64,000 nt of DNA, from NCBI GenBank assembly GCA_041686075.1, contig JAWLEO010000004.1, positions 11,006-75,005 on the forward strand, in the 5' to 3' direction. The notes under the pieces are model-generated. The model ran no database searches and was not told the origin of the DNA. It worked only from the letters and a program-made list of their open reading frames with translations. Below are positions 1,542-63,110 of the stretch, in pieces. Each line of letters opens with the position of its first letter. Positions within the stretch are counted from its first letter, which is position 1. A program made the translations under genes and the position numbers. The stretch is from Bacteroidales bacterium. Lineage in GTDB: Bacteria; Bacteroidota; Bacteroidia; Bacteroidales; VadinHA17.

Positions 1542-3063
1542 AAGTGTATTCGCCTAACCGGGCATTTATACGTGACAGGGCTTCCTTAATGCTTTCTTCA
1601 GGCCTGACATAATTATCAGTACCCCAGAATTCCCTGTCATAGCTGTTTATTGTTTCAGAAAAGATTGAATGCAGGGGTGCACGTTCCTCCCTTGCAAACC
1701 TTTGCACGTTTACAGTGTCAATATTGGTAATTGCCATTTCAAAGAAGATGGTGTAGGTATTGCCAAATATCCTGTTTTTCTTCCTGGCATAGAATTCAAG
1801 GTCACCCCTTACGTGGTTAAGATAATAGCGATTGTTAATATGACGGTAATTAATACGATACTGTGCTGACCTTATTTTTACATTAAAACCTTTGGCCGAA
1901 CGTTGAATAAAAGACCTGTCAAGTTTGTTAATGTAATCCTGGTTAATCTCAAAGTCAAAGGCATGAATGCCATAGTCTTGTGTGTTTATGTATATTACGC
2001 CTTCGGGCAGGGCTGTTTCATCAAGACCTTCTTTCTGTTCAAACTCAATAACAAAGGCAGCTTCATCGCCAATGTTTATAATGTTGGTCATCCTGTAATT
2101 GTAATCAGGAAAGCTTTCTTCCTTGAGAAAATCAAAGGTATTCTTCACACCATCGAGTAAAAGACATCCGTCCAGGCCCGACCTCAGCTTGAAAGTCAAT
2201 GTGTCTGACTGGTCGAGGTTATTTATTTTGCGACTTTTATAAATTTTTACCTGGTCATTAAACAGGGTGGCAGTGTATGAACTTTTATATAATTCGAGAA
2301 CTGCTTCCGAGTATTCCAGTAATTTCCTCTTCTTAGATACCGATTCGCGGTAGAAAGCAGTCATATGAGCAGGGTTGTTGCCATAGTTTTCGGGTATCCT
2401 TTCCTTTGCATTCCGGATCAGTTCAAGTGGATCCCTGTTTCTGATTATTACTTCAGGTATGGGAACATACATCCTGGTCAGGCTAATATTGAAGTAACTA
2501 TTAATCGCCTGCTTAACAGGGATCCTGCGACTGAAGAAGCCGAGGTAGGATACAACAAGTGTATCATCCAGGAAATCTTTGCTCAATTTAAGGTTATACT
2601 TCCCCTCATAATTTGACACAGTGCCTTTACCCTTTGACATTACACCTATTGTGGCATAAGGCAGGGGATCGCCACTGGCGGCATCTGTCACCTCACCTGA
2701 GAGCCTGTAAACGGCCTCCCTCCCTTCTTCCTTTATCAAAGGAGTGGAGTCACTGACTGACCGGTAGATTATTATGTGATTATCAATGATGGAATAATTC
2801 AGCATTTTGTCATAAAAGATGGTATCAAGAATATCCTTCAGGGATTCATTTTCCATCTTCAGCGTTATTATGCTTTCGGGTTCTATAAGGTCTGTGTCGT
2901 AGGTAAAATGGTAGCCAGTTTCCCGGGATACGGATTTTAAAATTGTTGAAATGCTGACATTATTAAGATTAAAAGAAAATGGAGTTTCAAGAACACTTTC
3001 CTGTGCGAAGGTAAAAGAAGGGCATGTTATAATGAGAATGAATATAACAAGCCTTTTTATCAT
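1525..3063 (-). CDS. secreted STN-domain + CarboxypepD_reg-like protein, lacks TonB-dependent plug/barrel
   Basis: ORF 1525..3096; likely start is MIKRLVIFILIITCPSFTFAQ (ATG at complement 3061-3063). An STN-like segment (NVSISTILKSVSRETGYHFTYDTDL..IIIY) is followed by a carboxypeptidase-regulatory-like segment (LSGEVTDAASGDPLPYATIGV..GTVSNYEGKYNL). The ~300-aa C-terminal domain is shared with 4601..5902. Confidence 0.7.
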   Translation of the reverse strand: MIKRLVIFILIITCPSFTFAQESVLETPFSFNLNNVSISTILKSVSRETGYHFTYDTDLIEPESIITLKMENESLKDILDTIFYDKMLNYSIIDNHIIIYRSVSDSTPLIKEEGREAVYRLSGEVTDAASGDPLPYATIGVMSKGKGTVSNYEGKYNLKLSKDFLDDTLVVSYLGFFSRRIPVKQAINSYFNISLTRMYVPIPEVIIRNRDPLELIRNAKERIPENYGNNPAHMTAFYRESVSKKRKLLEYSEAVLELYKSSYTATLFNDQVKIYKSRKINNLDQSDTLTFKLRSGLDGCLLLDGVKNTFDFLKEESFPDYNYRMTNIINIGDEAAFVIEFEQKEGLDETALPEGVIYINTQDYGIHAFDFEINQDYINKLDRSFIQRSAKGFNVKIRSAQYRINYRHINNRYYLNHVRGDLEFYARKKNRIFGNTYTIFFEMAITNIDTVNVQRFAREERAPLHSIFSETINSYDREFWGTDNYVRPEESIKEALSRINARLGEYTSNNSQ

Positions 3064-9082: not shown

Positions 9083-9927
9083 TGAAAACATTTGGTAAGA
9101 TAGAGGAAAAATTTGCCGGCTTTGAAAGTTCGGATATTTTATTGCAGTCTTTACCTTACGATGGTACCACCACCTGGGGTAAGGGCTCTGACAGAGCATT
9201 TCAAGCTTTCCTGGAGGCGTCAAACCATCTCGAGCTATACGATATTGAAACGGGGTCAGAAGTTTTCAGAAAGGGTATTCACATATTGCCGGAGATAGCC
9301 CTGGAAGGTAATCCTGAAGAGGTATCCATAAAAATATATGAACGAACAAAGCACCTGTTGGAAATTGATAAGTTGTTGACTTTTATAGGAGGAGAGCATT
9401 CTGTCAGTATTGGTATCATAAAGGCCTTCGCTGAGAAATTCAGTGGCCTGAGTGTTTTACAGTTGGATGCACATACCGATCTCAGGCCTGAATATATGGG
9501 TTCAGTATATAATCACGCCTGCGCCTTGCATGAGGCATCAAAAAACACCGATCTTATACAGGTGGGAATAAGAAGCATGGATATCAGTGAACTGGAGTAT
9601 TTTGACCGTTCGAAATGTATCTTCGCCGAAGAGATGCAGGATAATGATTACTGGGTTGAAAGGGTTGTTTCACTTTTAAATGATGATGTTTATATCACTG
9701 TGGACATGGATGTATTCGATCCTTCCGTCATGCCTGCAACAGGTACACCGGAACCGGGTGGTATGACATGGTACCAGGTTCTTAAGCTCTTGAAGAAAGT
9801 ATTTACAGCGAGCAATGTCAGGGGATTCGATATCGTGGAACTTGCGCCAATGGAAAGCATGAAGGCCCCGGCTTTCATGATGGTTAAATTATATTATAAA
9901 ATGTTAAGCTATAAATACTATGGCTAA
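9082..9927 (+). CDS. speB: agmatinase (ureohydrolase family)
   Basis: 281 aa. Mn-binding ureohydrolase motifs GGEHSVS, LDAHTDL, DMDVFDPS. Sits between the decarboxylase and the DHS-like gene. Confidence 0.8.
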   Translation: MKTFGKIEEKFAGFESSDILLQSLPYDGTTTWGKGSDRAFQAFLEASNHLELYDIETGSEVFRKGIHILPEIALEGNPEEVSIKIYERTKHLLEIDKLLTFIGGEHSVSIGIIKAFAEKFSGLSVLQLDAHTDLRPEYMGSVYNHACALHEASKNTDLIQVGIRSMDISELEYFDRSKCIFAEEMQDNDYWVERVVSLLNDDVYITVDMDVFDPSVMPATGTPEPGGMTWYQVLKLLKKVFTASNVRGFDIVELAPMESMKAPAFMMVKLYYKMLSYKYYG

Positions 9928-10891
9928 GGGTAGAATAAGTACATTTATGGATGAGCATTTCAGGCATTTCAATTCCGCCAGCTTGCTTGATGCCGCGAGG
10001 GCATACAATGCACAGCTTGAAAATGGTGCCAGGATGATGATCACACTTGCCGGGGCGATGAGTACGGCAGAGCTGGGTAAATCACTCGCTGAAATGATCA
10101 GGGAAGATAAGGTGCATATCCTTACATGTACAGGGGCAAATCTTGAAGAAGATGTCTTTAACCTTGTTGCACACAGTCATTATAAAAGAATACCGGAATA
10201 CAGGAACCTTAGTGACGACCAGGAAAGCAAGCTGCTGAAAAATCATTATAACAGGGTTACCGATACATGCATACCGGAAGAAGAAGCAATGAGGAGAATA
10301 GAGAAGCACCTGATGAAAGCATGGGAGAAGGCCAGTAAGGAGGGTGAGAGATATTTCCCCCATGAATATTTTTATGATATTCTGAAGAGTGGTGAACTAA
10401 AGGAATATTATGAGATTGATCCCCGGGATTCATGGTTGCTTGCTGCAGCCGAAAAAAATCTGCCCGTAATAGTGCCGGGATGGGAGGATTCGACATGTGG
10501 CAATTTTTTCGCATCTCATTGCATACGGGGCTTATATGACACATCAATTATTCGGTCAGGGATAGAATATATGATGTTCCTTGCTGAATGGTACCAAAAG
10601 AATTCCGCCGATGGCGTTGGCTTTTTCCAGATAGGAGGTGGCATAGCCGGTGATTTCCCTGTATGTGTTGTTCCCATGTTACACCAGGATCTTCAACTTG
10701 AAGATATTCCGGTATGGTCTTATTTTTGCCAGATAAGTGATTCAACTACCAGTTATGGTTCCTATTCGGGTGCTGTGCCCAACGAGAAAATAACATGGGG
10801 TAAGCTGTCACCGGAAACACCCAGGTTTATTATTGAATCAGATGCTACGATAGTGGCCCCGCTTATGTTTGCATATATCCTTGGCTGGTAA
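9920..10891 (+). CDS. deoxyhypusine synthase-like protein (probable homospermidine synthase)
   Basis: 323 aa. IGGGIAGDF and ITWGKL resemble the GGG..KH and SWGK (catalytic Lys) motifs of DHS-family enzymes. 8-nt overlap with the agmatinase stop. Confidence 0.75.
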   Translation: MAKGRISTFMDEHFRHFNSASLLDAARAYNAQLENGARMMITLAGAMSTAELGKSLAEMIREDKVHILTCTGANLEEDVFNLVAHSHYKRIPEYRNLSDDQESKLLKNHYNRVTDTCIPEEEAMRRIEKHLMKAWEKASKEGERYFPHEYFYDILKSGELKEYYEIDPRDSWLLAAAEKNLPVIVPGWEDSTCGNFFASHCIRGLYDTSIIRSGIEYMMFLAEWYQKNSADGVGFFQIGGGIAGDFPVCVVPMLHQDLQLEDIPVWSYFCQISDSTTSYGSYSGAVPNEKITWGKLSPETPRFIIESDATIVAPLMFAYILGW

Positions 10892-10912
10892 CTCCAGATA
10901 AAACTGGAATAT

Positions 10913-11039
10913 TGGAATAATGGAACCAAGGATCCCGAGCCCTACTCCCCTCGGCACGGTTCTTCCACCTTCGCCTTTCAAGCTCCGGCGGACAAAGGGA
11001 GAACCGCGCCAGCGGGGTGAGTCAATGATGGAATAATGG
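10913..11039. repeat. GC-rich hairpin element flanked by an 11-bp direct duplication (TGGAATAATGG)
   Basis: TGGAATAATGG occurs at 10913-10923 and 11029-11039. Clamp stem is GGCACGGTTCT (10953-63) / AGAACCGCGCC (11000-10) followed by AGCG. Inner arms are CCACCTTCGCC (10965-75) / GGCGGACAAAGG (10987-98). Confidence 0.75.
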
Positions 11040-11052
11040 GTTTTAATTCGGT

Positions 11053-11883
11053 TTAATCATTCAGGGTATACCTGACAAATCCGGTTACCGTGAGATCTTT
11101 ATCTGCAGATTCAAGGTATTGCCTGATAGTTTGTTTGTTATTCTTAACGAATTCCTGGTTAAGCAGTGTATTTTCCTTAAAGAATTTACCCAGTTTGCCC
11201 ATGGCTATTTTCTCCAGCAGGTTATCGGGCTTACCTTCACGGCGTGCCTGTTCTTTACCGATCTCTAATTCCCTGTCTATATCTTCCTGTTTTACATCAT
11301 CTTTATCTACAGCAATGGGATTCATTGCAGCAATTTGCATTGTAACATCCTTGTAAACCTGGGTATCAAGGCCTGACTTATTGAATCCTGCCAGTGTAGC
11401 CAGCCTGTTACCGGGATGGATATATGAATGCACGTGCTCCGCTTTAATATTATCGTAAAACGACAGTTCTAATTTTTCTCCTATAATGCCAATTTGCTCA
11501 ACGACTTTATCTTCAATCTTAACACCATCTATTTTACTTTTTTTCAGCTCATCAAGATTCTCAGCCTTCTCTTCAAGTGCCTTATCAAGTATTTCGTTAG
11601 CCAGCTTTTCGAAGTCAGCATTTTTTGCCACAAAATCAGTTTCGCAGTTAAGCACTATGAGGGCACCAAATTTTTCATCAGCGGTGGTCCTGGCGAGCAC
11701 CACTCCTTCACTTGCTTCACGATCGGCACGTTTACTGGCAACAGCCTGTCCTTTCTTTCTTATTATTTCAATTGCTTTGTCGAAATCACCTTCAGCTTCC
11801 TGCAGGGCATTTTTACAGTCCATCATACCCGCACCGGTCATTTTTCTCAGTTTTGCTACATCAGCAGCACTTATTGAAGCCAT
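11053..11883 (-). CDS. tsf: translation elongation factor Ts
   Basis: 276 aa. N-terminal UBA-like VAKLRKMTGAGMMDCKNAL and the EF-Ts core; downstream of rpsB. Confidence 0.95.
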   Translation of the reverse strand: MASISAADVAKLRKMTGAGMMDCKNALQEAEGDFDKAIEIIRKKGQAVASKRADREASEGVVLARTTADEKFGALIVLNCETDFVAKNADFEKLANEILDKALEEKAENLDELKKSKIDGVKIEDKVVEQIGIIGEKLELSFYDNIKAEHVHSYIHPGNRLATLAGFNKSGLDTQVYKDVTMQIAAMNPIAVDKDDVKQEDIDRELEIGKEQARREGKPDNLLEKIAMGKLGKFFKENTLLNQEFVKNNKQTIRQYLESADKDLTVTGFVRYTLND

Positions 11884-42677: not shown

Positions 42678-43166
42678 ATGGCAAAAGTATACCTGGGACT
42701 GGGTTCTAATATTGGCGAGCGGTATGAAAACCTTGCAGAGGCAAGGAAAAGACTGACCGGTTTGTCTTTTGAGATATTATCGGTTTCACCCGTTTATATT
42801 TCAGAACCATGGGGCTTTAAAAGCAATAATGATTTTTATAACCAGGTGATTGAAGTTAAAACTGATGTTGATCCCTATGACTTGCTGGATATTATCCAGG
42901 AGACAGAAAACAAAATGGGGAGAGAGCGAAGAATAAAAGGTTATTCAGACAGGATTATTGATATTGATATTCTCTTTTACGATAATAAGATAATAAGCAG
43001 TAAACCTTTGATTATTCCACATCCGCTTCTTCATAAACGTATGTTCGTTCTACAACCTATGGCTGATATAGCCCCTGAGTTTATACACCCGGTGTTTAAT
43101 AAAACTATTGAAGAATTGATGCAAGAGTGCGAGGATCCCCCTTTGAAGGGGGTCAGGGGGATGTGA
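42678..43166 (+). CDS. folK: 2-amino-4-hydroxy-6-hydroxymethyldihydropteridine diphosphokinase (last ~10 codons supplied by a repeat unit)
   Basis: 162 aa. V.LGLGSN.G, SPVY.SEPWG, R.IDIDIL.Y, IPHP.L..R.FVL.P motifs. The C-terminal EDPPLKGVRGM is encoded by the first 31-bp repeat copy. Confidence 0.88.
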   Translation: MAKVYLGLGSNIGERYENLAEARKRLTGLSFEILSVSPVYISEPWGFKSNNDFYNQVIEVKTDVDPYDLLDIIQETENKMGRERRIKGYSDRIIDIDILFYDNKIISSKPLIIPHPLLHKRMFVLQPMADIAPEFIHPVFNKTIEELMQECEDPPLKGVRGM

Positions 43167-43226
43167 TCCCCCTTTGAAGGGGGTCAGGGGGATGTGATCC
43201 CCCTTTGAAGGGGGCCAAGGGGATGT
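43134..43226. repeat. 3 tandem copies of a 31-bp unit GATCCCCCTTTGAAGGGGGTCAGGGGGATGT
   Basis: Copies at 43134-43164, 43165-43195 and 43196-43226; the third has 2 substitutions. Each unit contains the CCCCC-TTTGAA-GGGGG palindrome. Confidence 0.95.
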
Positions 43227-47878: not shown

Positions 47879-47961
47879 ACTCGTTTCTCGTTGCTCGTTT
47901 CGTTTCCCCACCTTCGCTCTACGGGCTACGGCGGGCAGGCTTGGTTCTTGGTTCTAATTTT
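47879..47961. repeat. GC-rich spacer element sharing the CCACCTTCGC..CGGCGG core with the 10.9-kb element
   Basis: CTCGTTTC occurs twice (47880-87, 47894-901). Core is CCACCTTCGC (47908-17) ... CGGCGGGCAGG (47929-39). Tandem CTTGGTT x2 (47940-53). The element fills the whole convergent spacer. Confidence 0.6.
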
Positions 47962-49899
47962 TCATTTTTGTACGGCAAGAGCCGCTTCCACATCCTTTTG
48001 CAGCTGTTGGTAATCAAAATGATAAGACATTATTTCGTTTGCTTCCTTAATTAGTTGATAAGCTTCTTCATACCTGCCGAGTTTATAGCAGGCATAGGCT
48101 TTAAGAGCTTTCCCGTTTCCTGATTCAGGGTTTTGTGCCAGCCATTCTTTCTCAACGAATTCCAGACCTTCATTAATATCAATTTCCTGGTCGATAAGGA
48201 GGTGGGCCAGATTGGCCTTATAAACAAAGTTATTGGGATTAAGTTCCGTGGCTTTCCTCATGTGTTCTTCTGCTTCTTTTTTCCTTCCTGCCTCCCAATA
48301 GATATGCCCCAACCAATACTGAATATTATCAGCGGATTCACCCAGGCGATGCTTGGTATTTAAATATTCCCGGAGGTATTTATCAGCAGCACTTGTGTCA
48401 TTCCCGGAAAGGGCACATAGCGAAAGGAGGAAGTAAATTTCTCTTTGGCTTATATCGTCATGTAATATTTCCAGGCCCTTTTCGAGTATTTCTTTTTCCC
48501 TGTCATGGTAGCCGGCATTATGTAAAGCATTTCCAAAATGGGTGTAAAATTTCCAGGTCTTAGGATAATCACCTCTTTCCTGGCTGATACGCATTATCTT
48601 CTCAAATGCGTGAATGGTTTTTTCATATTGTTTTAAAAAATCGTGATATGTTACACCAATGTCATACCAGAGCAATGTTGACTCTATCCCTGATACCTCC
48701 AGCATCTCCAGTTTTTTCCTGATCCTGTCCGGGTTTTCCTCGATGAGAGCTTCATACCATAGGTCAACCCAGTTCTGGTACCTGGGCTGCAGGTTTTCTT
48801 TATGCCGGTATGCTATCTTTGTCCACTCTCTTGCAGCATCCTGATCCTGGGGAGTTTTAAAGCAATGGCTGAATGCAATAAAGAATGAAGCAAGGGTAAA
48901 AGTGGAGTCTATTTCGAGCGCCATTTTCATTTCCTCAATTGCAGGATCATAGTTGCCGGCCAGGAGCATATTCAGACCATCGATATAATGCCTGTATGCT
49001 CCGGGTGACTGTGTATATGCCTTTATGATGTCAGCACCTGCATTCGCTTCAATAGCCCTGATCTCGAGGTGGTTTTTTATTTCCTCGCATAAGGAAGAGG
49101 CCATTTCAAGGTAGCCTGATGACTCCAGGTTACCTTCAACCCGGAGGCTTGATATGACATTCCCTGTTTCCGTATTTACCAGGTTGGCAAGTATCCAGTA
49201 GGTAGATTCACGTCCCTGGTAACTGCCAGTGATATATGTCTCTGCCCTGGCCAGCTTTGCTATTCCCTGTGCCCTGGCGGGTGATATGCCCGCGGTGTAG
49301 ACCTGGTTGGCACTTTCTGTTACCTCGTACATGGTATGATCATCGCAGACTGCCAGTTCAGGCGAAGTGCCAAGTATGTTTATCAATAGTGATGATATCC
49401 CGTTGCTGAACCAGTTCAGTGTTGTGTCACCCGTCTGGTTAACAAAGGGCATAACTGCTATGGAGATCCTGCCGTCATCCTGTCGTATATCATGGAATTT
49501 ATCCCTTTTAAATATTTTAGGATAGACGAGGACCATGACCATTACCACAAGTATGGCAATTACTAGATCGCTTACCTTCAGTTTTCTTTTTTTTGCTCCG
49601 GCAGGAGCAGTATCCCCTGGGTAATTTACATTTTCAGCCCCAGTTGTCTCAGTTTTCTTGATTCCCTCGGATGTAAAATCATATATCCATGAAACCACTG
49701 CAGTAATAACGAAGCCGATGCAAAGGAGGACCAGGACAAAATTTATTGTCCATGCAGGTAAGCCGAGCGGATCGACTATGATCGAAGTTAATTCAAGAAT
49801 AACATAGGCAGCGGCGGCATAAGCGATAATAACACGGATTACCTTCCTGCGCTTCAGTTCCTGCCAGAATGAAAGAGGCTTTTTCGATTTGCCGGCCAT
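47962..49899 (-). CDS. membrane-anchored TPR-repeat protein
   Basis: 645 aa. N-terminal FWQELKRRKVIRV + 2 TM helices, then multiple TPR-like helical repeats (A..Y.LG.Y.EA patterns). Confidence 0.65.
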   Translation of the reverse strand: MAGKSKKPLSFWQELKRRKVIRVIIAYAAAAYVILELTSIIVDPLGLPAWTINFVLVLLCIGFVITAVVSWIYDFTSEGIKKTETTGAENVNYPGDTAPAGAKKRKLKVSDLVIAILVVMVMVLVYPKIFKRDKFHDIRQDDGRISIAVMPFVNQTGDTTLNWFSNGISSLLINILGTSPELAVCDDHTMYEVTESANQVYTAGISPARAQGIAKLARAETYITGSYQGRESTYWILANLVNTETGNVISSLRVEGNLESSGYLEMASSLCEEIKNHLEIRAIEANAGADIIKAYTQSPGAYRHYIDGLNMLLAGNYDPAIEEMKMALEIDSTFTLASFFIAFSHCFKTPQDQDAAREWTKIAYRHKENLQPRYQNWVDLWYEALIEENPDRIRKKLEMLEVSGIESTLLWYDIGVTYHDFLKQYEKTIHAFEKIMRISQERGDYPKTWKFYTHFGNALHNAGYHDREKEILEKGLEILHDDISQREIYFLLSLCALSGNDTSAADKYLREYLNTKHRLGESADNIQYWLGHIYWEAGRKKEAEEHMRKATELNPNNFVYKANLAHLLIDQEIDINEGLEFVEKEWLAQNPESGNGKALKAYACYKLGRYEEAYQLIKEANEIMSYHFDYQQLQKDVEAALAVQK

Positions 49900-53098: not shown

Positions 53099-53275
53099 AT
53101 AACTGATAACCTTGTCCACTGTAGCAAGGCACGGATCTGGAACCGAGGAGCCTGAGCTTGCTATGGCAAGCGATGGTGACGAGCTCGACGAAATGAGTTG
53201 GCACGAGTCTGGAGACTCGCGCCAGCGATTTAAGTCAGATCCGCGCCAGCGAAGGAGGACTCATAACTGATAACC
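53099..53275. repeat. nested GC-rich hairpin element flanked by a 13-bp direct duplication (ATAACTGATAACC)
   Basis: ATAACTGATAACC occurs at 53099-53111 and 53263-53275. Outer clamp is GGCACGGATCT (53128-38) / AGATCCGCGCC-AGCG (53237-51). Inner clamp is GGCACGAGTCT (53200-10) / AGACTCGCGCC-AGCG (53213-27). An extra stem GCTTGC-tatg-GCAAGC lies at 53156-71. Confidence 0.8.
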
Positions 53276-62900: not shown

Positions 62901-62972
<72 letters not shown>

Positions 62973-62977
62973 CAAAG

Positions 62978-63009
62978 AAAAGCCTTAACGCAAAGCGTTG
63001 AGGCTTTTT
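62978..63009 (+). terminator. strong hairpin terminator after tRNA-fMet
   Basis: AAAAGCCTTAACGC-aaa-GCGTTGAGGCTTTT forms a 14-bp stem including one U.G pair, with a T-run. It could act bidirectionally (A-run upstream). Confidence 0.7.
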
Positions 63010-63110
63010 ATATACCCGCCCGTCAAAAGTTTGCTTTTGTAAGGGATGTTATATAAAAAGCCTCATCCATGCATAGCATGGTAAGGCTTTTCTTTGTTAA
63101 GCACTTCACA

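Follow-up and report, generated by a model that had tools for sequence, protein, structure and literature searches.

A GC-rich insert downstream of tsf in a Bacteroidales genome, probably a mosaic element of a Bacteroidota REP-RAYT system

The insert in the tsf spacer

In the window (the whole 64-kb stretch of DNA that was analysed), a deoxyhypusine-synthase-like (DS-like) gene and tsf converge on a spacer of 161 bp that contains a GC-rich insert. According to the original prediction, this insert is bracketed by two copies of the 11-mer TGGAATAATGG. Exact copies are indeed present at 10913-10923 and 11029-11039, and the 105 bp between them (10924-11028) are rich in GC and in hairpins, with a local GC content of 0.63-0.67 in 60-nt windows compared to 0.41 for the window as a whole. 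Each of the stems that had been named (CCGAG/CTCGG, an outer clamp and an imperfect inner hairpin) was also found in the sequence. The features of the locus are listed here; the type A and type B modules to which some of them belong are described in the next section.

9920-10891, plus strand: DS-like gene (Pfam DS)
10905-10923, plus strand: left octamer array TGGAATAT TGGAATAA TGG (TRF), which includes the left 11-mer (10913-10923)
10920-11027, plus strand: polymorphic 108-bp segment, absent from loci L088 and L089, with junctions ambiguous by 3 bp (AAT)
10924-10952, plus strand: truncated 5' part of a type A module (AACCAAGGATCCCGAG…), which carries the CCGAG/CTCGG stem
10935-10939 and 10950-10954, plus strand: CCGAG and CTCGG, the two sides of that stem, read in the sequence
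10953-11014, plus strand: REP core hairpin, with arms GGCACGGTTCT (10953-10963) and AGAACCGCGCC (11000-11010) and tail AGCG (11011-11014)
10964-10999, minus strand: inner type B-minimal module (minus-strand reading CTTTGTCCGCCGGAGCTTGAAAGGCGAAGGTGGA), within the REP loop TCT^…^GGAGA
10964-10975 and 10988-10999, plus strand: inner imperfect hairpin, TCCACCTTCGCC and GGCGGACAAAGG, read in the sequence
11015-11026, plus strand: conserved type A 3' end GGGTGAGTCAAT, a 12-mer that recurs after the REP
11024-11039, plus strand: right octamer units AATGA TGGAATAA TGG, native and shared with the empty site, which include the right 11-mer (11029-11039)
11053-11883, minus strand: tsf, the convergent partner of the DS-like gene

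The tsf element is a copy of a type A module whose 5' part is truncated (10924-10952 differs from the type A consensus AACCGAGGAACCTGAG at three positions), whose 3' end is kept and whose core loop is interrupted by 36 nt, namely a type B-minimal module in inverted orientation. Position 4 of the core stem is an A.C mismatch on the plus strand and a G.T pair on the minus strand. The element contains one REP core and not the two inverted REPs with a short spacer that define a REPIN.

These repeats break short-read assemblies, and several Logan contigs terminate inside the element: contigs L002, L005, L006, L007 and L008, which encode an identical tsf protein, end within it or just before it. (Two of these contigs run into the adapter-like sequence AGATCGGAAGAGC.)

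A family of hairpin modules in Bacteroidota

The insert had been proposed to share its clamp with a second GC-rich element, located at 53.1 kb in the window, and the two do belong to the same family. The clamp GGCACG-NN-TCT…AGA-NN-CGCGCC-AGCG is common to the tsf insert and to the 53.1-kb element, where it occurs in two nested copies (53128-53251 and 53200-53227), so that there are three REP cores in the 64 kb. The string CGCGCCAGCG has three exact matches in the window, all within these two elements; with at most one mismatch it has five matches when 0.5 are expected, a number that was reached in none of 100 shuffles. The related copies are as follows.

47905-47941, minus strand: type B-minimal module lacking a REP core, CCTGCCCGCCGTAGCCCGTAGAGCGAAGGTGGGG; a third copy related to these elements
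53112-53262, plus strand: sister element, a type B module with its REP at 53128-53251, flanked on both sides by ATAACTGATAACC

The type B REP of the sister element is interrupted exactly at TCTGG^AGA by a complete type A module, which in turn contains a minimal 28-nt REP (53200-53227). The module at 47905-47941 (region 47880-47955, minus strand) lies directly past the stop codon of the gene at 47962-49899 on the minus strand and has heptamer arrays on its flanks (CTCGTTT, three units, and CTTGGTT, 2.3 units). It is related to the inner module of the tsf copy, as is a module in the tsf-DS spacer of locus L092. Two further repeats were seen in the window. At 43134-43226 there is a 31-nt GC-rich unit, GATCCCCCTTTGAAGGGGGTCAGGGGGATGT, in three tandem copies, each with a CCCCC/GGGGG hairpin, the sequence of which is unrelated to the REP family. 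The region 62972-63097, which directly follows the tRNA at 62901-62972, has an inverted repeat of 16 nt without mismatches (62972-62987 and 63082-63097) that encloses a 30-nt imperfect hairpin (62999-63065).

We scanned one genome per species (GTDB) with the pattern GGCACGNNTCTN{2,32}AGANNCGCGCCAGCG, which covers REPs free of large loop inserts like that of the tsf copy. The scan returned 79 loci compared to about two on a random-sequence background (a rough estimate), nearly all of them of the 28-nt form. Approximately 70 of the 79 are in Bacteroidota, often with many loci per genome (up to 12 or more per draft genome), and the carriers include Bacteroidales and Rikenellaceae MAGs, Lentimicrobiaceae, Rufibacter, Sabulibacter, Pontibacter, Hymenobacter and Cyclobacteriaceae; the few long-gap matches in GC-rich phyla look like chance. 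The sequence is a dispersed, GC-rich imperfect palindrome of the kind found in REP systems. Most copies lie between genes, whether these converge, diverge or run in tandem, and both orientations occur. When the ORFs around the 79 loci were clustered, the only neighbours that recurred were housekeeping paralogue families.

The core is a 28-nt imperfect palindrome, GGCACG-NN-TCT-GG-AGA-NN-CGCGCC-AGC(G), that is present in its minimal form at 53200-53227. In 64 of 70 copies the two free positions of its stem form Watson-Crick pairs, with six different dinucleotides. The 23 copies whose discovery did not depend on the pattern all have A at position 4, C at position 21 and the tail AG(C). The 5' flank of the core is variable, and the conserved unpaired tag is the AGC located 3' of the hairpin (GCT located 5' on the opposite strand). 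The canonical REP foot GT[AG]G is missing from the family, which speaks against its assignment to the REPs.

A reading of the flanks shows that larger conserved modules usually surround the core. Type A has the layout (TGGAATAA)n-AACCGAGGAACCTGAG-(variable hairpin)-GA-AGGTGAC-GAGCTCGACGAA-tcccNgc-(core)-GGGTGAGTCAAT-(RATGGAAT)n, or in summary AACCGAGG…GAGCTCGACGAA…(REP)…GGGTGAGTCAAT. The terminal 12-mer follows the REP with zero to two mismatches in L014, L039, L040, L047, L063, L064, L068, L080 and L086, and all of these loci except L047 carry full-length type A modules. Type B has the layout cTTTGTCCGCCGTAGCat-(core)-AGCGAAGGTGGA, or in summary TTTGTCCGCCGTAGC…AGCGAAGGTGGA, and is often flanked by (AGCCTY)n. 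Nesting of the kind seen at 53.1 kb also occurs in L012, L018, L028, L049, L051 and L059; the inner type B-minimal module of the tsf copy is in the opposite orientation to the nested copies in L012 and L049.

Other arrangements were observed as well. The first 1300 nt of L065 (1-1300) contain three REPIN-like doublets, each consisting of a minus-orientation core, an 83-bp AT-rich spacer and a plus-orientation core, and these doublets bracket two ORFs that were assigned by eye as PIN-type toxin-like (126 aa) and small antitoxin-like (99 aa). In addition, tandem arrays of whole cores (68-nt period, in Lentimicrobiaceae) or of 3' half sites (23-28-nt period), which are without matching 5' arms, are found at L034 1008-1103, around L074 200-280 and at L020 2195-2285.

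Only tRNAs reach the gathering score of Rfam 15 in the window, and around the tsf and 53.1-kb elements matches at E<=10 are at chance level. The motif CCTGAG…CGAAGG of type A was considered as part of a hammerhead or other ribozyme; its core misfits CUGANGA, Rfam lends no support, and a hairpin with tandem G.A pairs is the better reading of the motif. The sequence CCGCGCCAGCGGGG (11003-11018 in the window, and in type A copies generally) matches the stem-loop of type I-E CRISPR repeats exactly over 14 nt. The string CGCGCCAGCG is likewise part of a type I-E CRISPR repeat, and a literature search by sequence strings gave type I-E CRISPR papers only, among them ones on the E. coli and Salmonella repeat; the identity of CCGCGCCAGCGGGG with the CRISPR repeat is probably a coincidence. 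No published description of Bacteroidota REPs with this motif turned up in limited literature searches.

A RAYT gene flanked by inverted hairpins

To look for an associated enzyme, all fetched loci were searched with a regular expression for the HUH…Y motif, which found two ORFs (in L020 and L028), both of which touch hairpins. The L020 ORF (GCA_016928075.1) encodes 188 aa with a Pfam Y1_Tnp match of 38.8 bits and the motifs PDHFH, WQ and YIHNNP, and its homologues are annotated as RayT or REP-associated tyrosine transposase. The gene lies downstream of uvrB, with minus-orientation cores and half-site arrays upstream of it and a plus-orientation core 7 nt past its stop codon; the locus ends just after this core, which leaves the trxB side out of view.

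The source genome has a RAYT as well. P0125, a protein with 75% identity to the L020 ORF, has its gene between uvrB and a trxB-like gene (GCA_046482335.1, contig JAWOFJ010000004.1). With 113 bits it exceeds the cut-off of 80 for NCBIfam NF047646 'REP-associated tyrosine transposase'; it also matches Pfam Y1_Tnp and has E. coli TnpArep (4ER8) as its best PDB match. In the spacer upstream of P0125 there are cores in minus orientation and half sites, together with a nested type A module, and a plus-orientation GGCACGGATCTGGAGATCCGCGCCAGCG is located 7 nt past its stop codon.

L100 1769-1951, minus strand, and 2569-2596, plus strand: hairpins that flank the source-genome RAYT in inverted orientation

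The same inverted flanking is found in L101, L103-107 and L020. GCA_964562315.1 and GCA_975968585.1 share both the hairpin layout and the uvrB-RAYT-trxB synteny. In all, uvrB-RAYT-trxB-like synteny is present in three assemblies, with RAYTs that are 75-92% identical to the L020 query, and four genomes, the source genome among them, have the inverted hairpins on either side of the gene. No such hairpins surround a RAYT gene that shares 52% identity and has other genomic surroundings. The second ORF found by the search, at L028 3812-4465 (Bacteroidales UBA9300), is RAYT-like, and a composite of REP, type A and type B is inserted into it, with the frame kept, between the HUH motif (NHFH) and the Y motif (YILENP). 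(There is no transposase within the 64-kb window, just as the original prediction had stated; the RAYT gene is on another contig.)

The source genome therefore encodes a RAYT that is flanked by inverted cognate hairpins. Since this is the arrangement of a REPtron, the tsf insert is, with high probability, a non-autonomous mosaic REP/BIME-type element of a REP-RAYT system. Bacterial REPs had been offered for the insert as an analogy; with the clamp hairpin flanking the genome's own RAYT gene, they become the class to which it belongs. The family is an uncatalogued member of a known repeat class and not a new kind of element.

The family can be compared with its nearest known counterparts. Like the REPtrons of Proteobacteria (REP/BIME with a RAYT, or TnpA-REP; E. 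coli YafM, PDB 4ER8), it combines a short GC-rich imperfect palindrome that bears an unpaired tag, numerous copies between genes in either orientation and in mosaic clusters, and a Y1 HUH gene between inverted copies, in shared synteny in three assemblies. It differs from them in that the tag is AGC/GCT and not GTAG, stem position 4 is an invariant A.C/G.T mismatch, the REP lies mostly inside accessory hairpin modules, loops receive insertions, and short tandem arrays flank the modules. The REPINs of Pseudomonas fluorescens are non-autonomous and mobilised in trans by a RAYT, form clusters by insertion into or next to existing copies, and also occur in tandem arrays (Bertels & Rainey 2011, PMC3116915). 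L065 has true inverted doublets of this kind about 110 bp apart, whereas the tsf copy is a single REP.

Counterparts are also found among the RAYTs of Bacteroidetes. Subclass 2.4, from Cyanobacteria and Bacteroidetes, has REPs with three G-C pairs at the bottom of the stem as well as REPs inserted in frame inside the tnpA-REP gene; subclass 2.6, from Bacteroidetes, has 'atypical secondary structures' without GTAG, and atypical tags also occur in class 3 (Quentin et al. 2018, PMC6006769). The family resembles subclasses 2.4 and 2.6, by features alone, in its stem bottom GGC/GCC, in the motifs xHxH, WQ and YIHNNP and in the in-frame insertion of L028; CGCGCCAGCG is absent from the REP table of that study, which does not include this REP family. 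Of the two REP superfamilies tagged GTAG and CGTC, the latter has stems of 8-9 bp with A-T first pairs, and some families lie within larger 'target' palindromes and some within genes (Di Nocera et al. 2013, PMC3733652). The elements described here are likewise small tagged palindromes, but neither tag fits and the stem is 11 bp.

Two other systems share individual traits with the family. The GC clusters of yeast mitochondria are GC-rich palindromic modules that lie in AT-rich spacers, nest in one another and are polymorphic among strains. We know of no dedicated enzyme for them, whereas a cognate RAYT exists here, and there is no sequence relationship. IS1397 and ISKpn1 are autonomous IS3-family elements that insert specifically into the loop of a REP hairpin; the REP loop is also the insertion target here, but what is inserted are small non-coding modules.

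Precise entry into the loop bears on another explanation, namely that a tyrosine recombinase acts on the core as a site of the Xer/dif-like or integron attC-like kind, with 8-bp arms around the 8-bp core TCTGGAGA at which modules are exchanged. The modules do enter exactly inside TCTGG^AGA, a conserved mismatch marks one strand, as it does in attC sites, and the L065 hairpin doublets bracket a putative toxin-antitoxin pair. However, the arm positions adjoining the core are free to vary and do so in concert, as expected of a hairpin rather than of protein-binding arms, no recombinase gene recurs nearby, and the RAYT association accounts for the data. We therefore regard a recombination site as scarcely credible and retain the REP-RAYT assignment.

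Filled and empty sites, flanking repeats and movement

Close relatives lack the insert. L088 and L089, which are 99% identical in the tsf protein and 95-97% identical in the flanking DNA, have a spacer of 54 bp compared to 161 bp here. The existence of an empty site in L088 bears out the claim that a discrete segment was inserted, and with relatives this close it points to recent gain of the segment here or recent loss in L088. The empty site reads CTGGAATAT TGGAATGA TGGAATAA TGGGG, with TGGAATAT TGGAATGA TGGAATAA TGG in L088 at the position of the left array. At the junction, …AAAACTGGAATATTGGAAT is followed directly by GATGGAATAATGGGG… in the empty site and the filled site reads …AAAACTGGAATATTGGAAT(AATGGAACC…GGGGTGAGTCAAT)GATGGAATAATGGG…, where the parentheses enclose the additional segment. 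The difference is 108 bp, and only AAT is ambiguous at the junction. These 108 bp can be read as an element that has its own AATGG, with 3 bp of ambiguity, or alternatively as a 100-bp element (10924-11023) together with one 8-bp unit, AAT(A/G)ATGG, that could be an 8-bp duplication with one substitution.

The original prediction interpreted the 11-mers as an 11-bp target duplication of local sequence, and this part of it did not hold, whereas the insertion of a REP-like element did. Whichever way the 108 bp are read, the left 11-mer joins TGGAAT from the native sequence to an added AATGG, and the right one is native throughout. Moreover, the 11-mer, whose repeat extends imperfectly to 16 nt, belongs to an 8-bp periodic array (TGGAATAT TGGAATAA TGG, detected by TRF), the site as a whole being a (TGGAATRW)n octamer array that is already there when the site is empty. 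Because of this periodicity, the '11 bp' is a consequence of the array and not a measured stagger; the repeated 11-mer would be a by-product of the array, and no 11-bp staggered cut took place at the tsf site. The 11-mer is not a common low-complexity word either, as it occurs nowhere else in the window in exact form and, with at most one mismatch, has six matches compared to 3.1 expected.

The array is a module-specific companion or target of type A rather than random local sequence. The junction motif GGAWTNNTGG (TGGAWTNNTGG in the array), which has a background of 0.065 per kb per strand, lies within 40 nt to the left of eight of the nine type A copies that have a defined 5' end, in at least six genomes, and L063 has at least six tandem octamer units. 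(Note that short arrays of 6-8 nt are fairly common among the spacers of the window, so the association with arrays may partly be a property of the genome; the link of TGGAATAA to type A is nonetheless specific.)

More distant relatives differ at this position. Those with 87% identity in tsf have an ordinary terminator hairpin in the tsf spacer, and those with 88% identity (L092-L094) have a hexamer array, AGGCTGAGGATAAGGATAAGGCT, and a type B-minimal module in the tsf-DS spacer. The spacers at 87-88% identity are unrelated and give no polarity to the gain or loss of the segment. Since the 88% relatives carry a different set of family modules, comparison of the spacers suggests that this one has been colonised repeatedly and independently across lineages.

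These comparisons also bear on whether the insert functions as a structured RNA, that is, as a 3' UTR stabiliser or terminator for the rpsB-tsf operon (minus strand) or for the DS-like gene (plus strand). Folding of both strands, as had been proposed, gave a long rod on each (RNA -51 kcal/mol, z about -2); on the tsf strand a G.U pair in the REP stem takes the place of the A.C of the other strand; and in tandem spacers the GGCACG orientation is antisense in 17 cases and sense in seven (a weak bias, p about 0.06, an estimate), so that the G.U form is more often transcribed. REPs of E. coli are known to stabilise upstream mRNA. On the other hand, no T-tract terminator was predicted on either strand of 10700-11250, which leaves the suggested rpsB-tsf terminator without its signature, and there is no Rfam match even at E<=10. 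Copies of the family are also found between divergent genes, in either orientation and within a RAYT ORF, one close relative does without the segment, and an 87% relative uses an ordinary terminator hairpin. We consider an RNA function very unlikely to explain the insert. With the terminator signature lacking and the segment missing from a close relative, any role in tsf 3'-end formation is at most secondary, and an effect on tsf or DS-like transcripts, such as 3'-end stabilisation, would likewise be secondary.

The 53.1-kb composite provides a second comparison. It is absent from relatives with 86-89% identity in the flanking proteins (L111, L112-L114), in which the spacer is 32-33 bp and a single diverged copy of the 13-mer, ATAACTCATAACT, lies beside the start codon. 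The empty spacer of L111 (1767-1801) has a heptamer array, (AAACYTG)x5, ahead of ATAACTCATAACTATG. Among near-identical strains, exact-protein look-ups gave only filled or truncated contigs and no empty 53.1-kb site. Judged from these relatives, the 13-mer does seem to be a genuine duplication of native sequence. The idea of a duplication of local sequence would fit the 13-mer at 53.1 kb but not the 11-mer at tsf. Across the family, direct repeats of 8-16 bp flank members (the 13-mer at 53.1 kb, about 12 bp at L068, 16 bp at L027).

Such repeats might be taken to mean that the insert arose as a MITE-like element or by template switching, through staggered cuts or microhomology with variable duplications (8, 11-13 and 16 bp), and that the RAYT link is incidental, for instance because RAYT genes act as hot spots for the repeats. 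Native direct repeats do flank the copies at 53.1 kb (where relatives have the single diverged ATAACTCATAACT), L068 and L027, and the tsf site also fits a 100-bp element with the 8-bp duplication described above. Nevertheless, no DDE or other transposase recurs near the approximately 70 copies, nested insertions into REP loops have no duplication (53139/53140 in the window), and the same octamer flank in at least six genomes is unexpected if arbitrary targets are duplicated. Furthermore, the RAYT is flanked in a specific inverted layout in four genomes and the layout is absent around the RAYT at 52% identity. We therefore think this explanation unlikely. (A MITE of a DDE transposon in particular was rejected, as the flanking repeats vary, at 0, 3 or 8, 12, 13 and 16 bp, and only a RAYT is associated.) The variable-length flanking repeats remain a real, unexplained property of the family, and they also argue against the REP reading, as direct repeats of 8-16 bp are not expected from Y1 'peel-and-paste' transposition.

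Under the REP-RAYT reading that we favour, the 28-nt core would be the REP cognate to a clade of Bacteroidota RAYTs (Y1 HUH family). From the layout of the RAYT loci we infer that the RAYT catalyses movement of the element, mobilising or excising it by an action in trans on single-stranded DNA in which the hairpin has folded, with the (TGGAATRW)n array downstream of tsf as the putative target or donor. The likely substrate is the strand that has a G.T wobble at stem position 4 and the tag GCT 5' of the stem, and the candidate would read CGCT-GGCGCGNNTCTCCAGANNCGTGCC in its folded form. As a single REP with an interrupted loop, the tsf copy may no longer be a substrate of the RAYT, a further point against the reading.

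It is also conceivable, though doubtful, that the family moves as interchangeable hairpin modules that enter the REP loop precisely at TCTGG^AGA in either orientation, land in or generate module-specific arrays, and leave direct repeats of 8-16 bp. Module-specific tandem arrays are observed, (TGGAATAA)n with type A and (AGCCTY)n with type B. If such a scheme were true, it would mean an insertion chemistry linked to the RAYT, or a route through replication or template switching, unlike the duplication-free peel-and-paste of IS200/IS605.

With these assignments both of the odd GC-rich inserts of the window are identified, and GGCACGNNTCTGGAGANNCGCGCCAGC can serve as an annotation signature for the REP family across Bacteroidales, Rikenellaceae, Lentimicrobiaceae and Cytophagales (Rufibacter, Sabulibacter, Pontibacter, Hymenobacter). 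To our knowledge, REP-RAYT systems have been studied almost only in Proteobacteria. A system from Bacteroidota with a non-GTAG tag, a strictly conserved mismatch in the stem and a pair of filled and empty sites in close strains offers starting points for tests of how RAYTs recognise and move their REPs.
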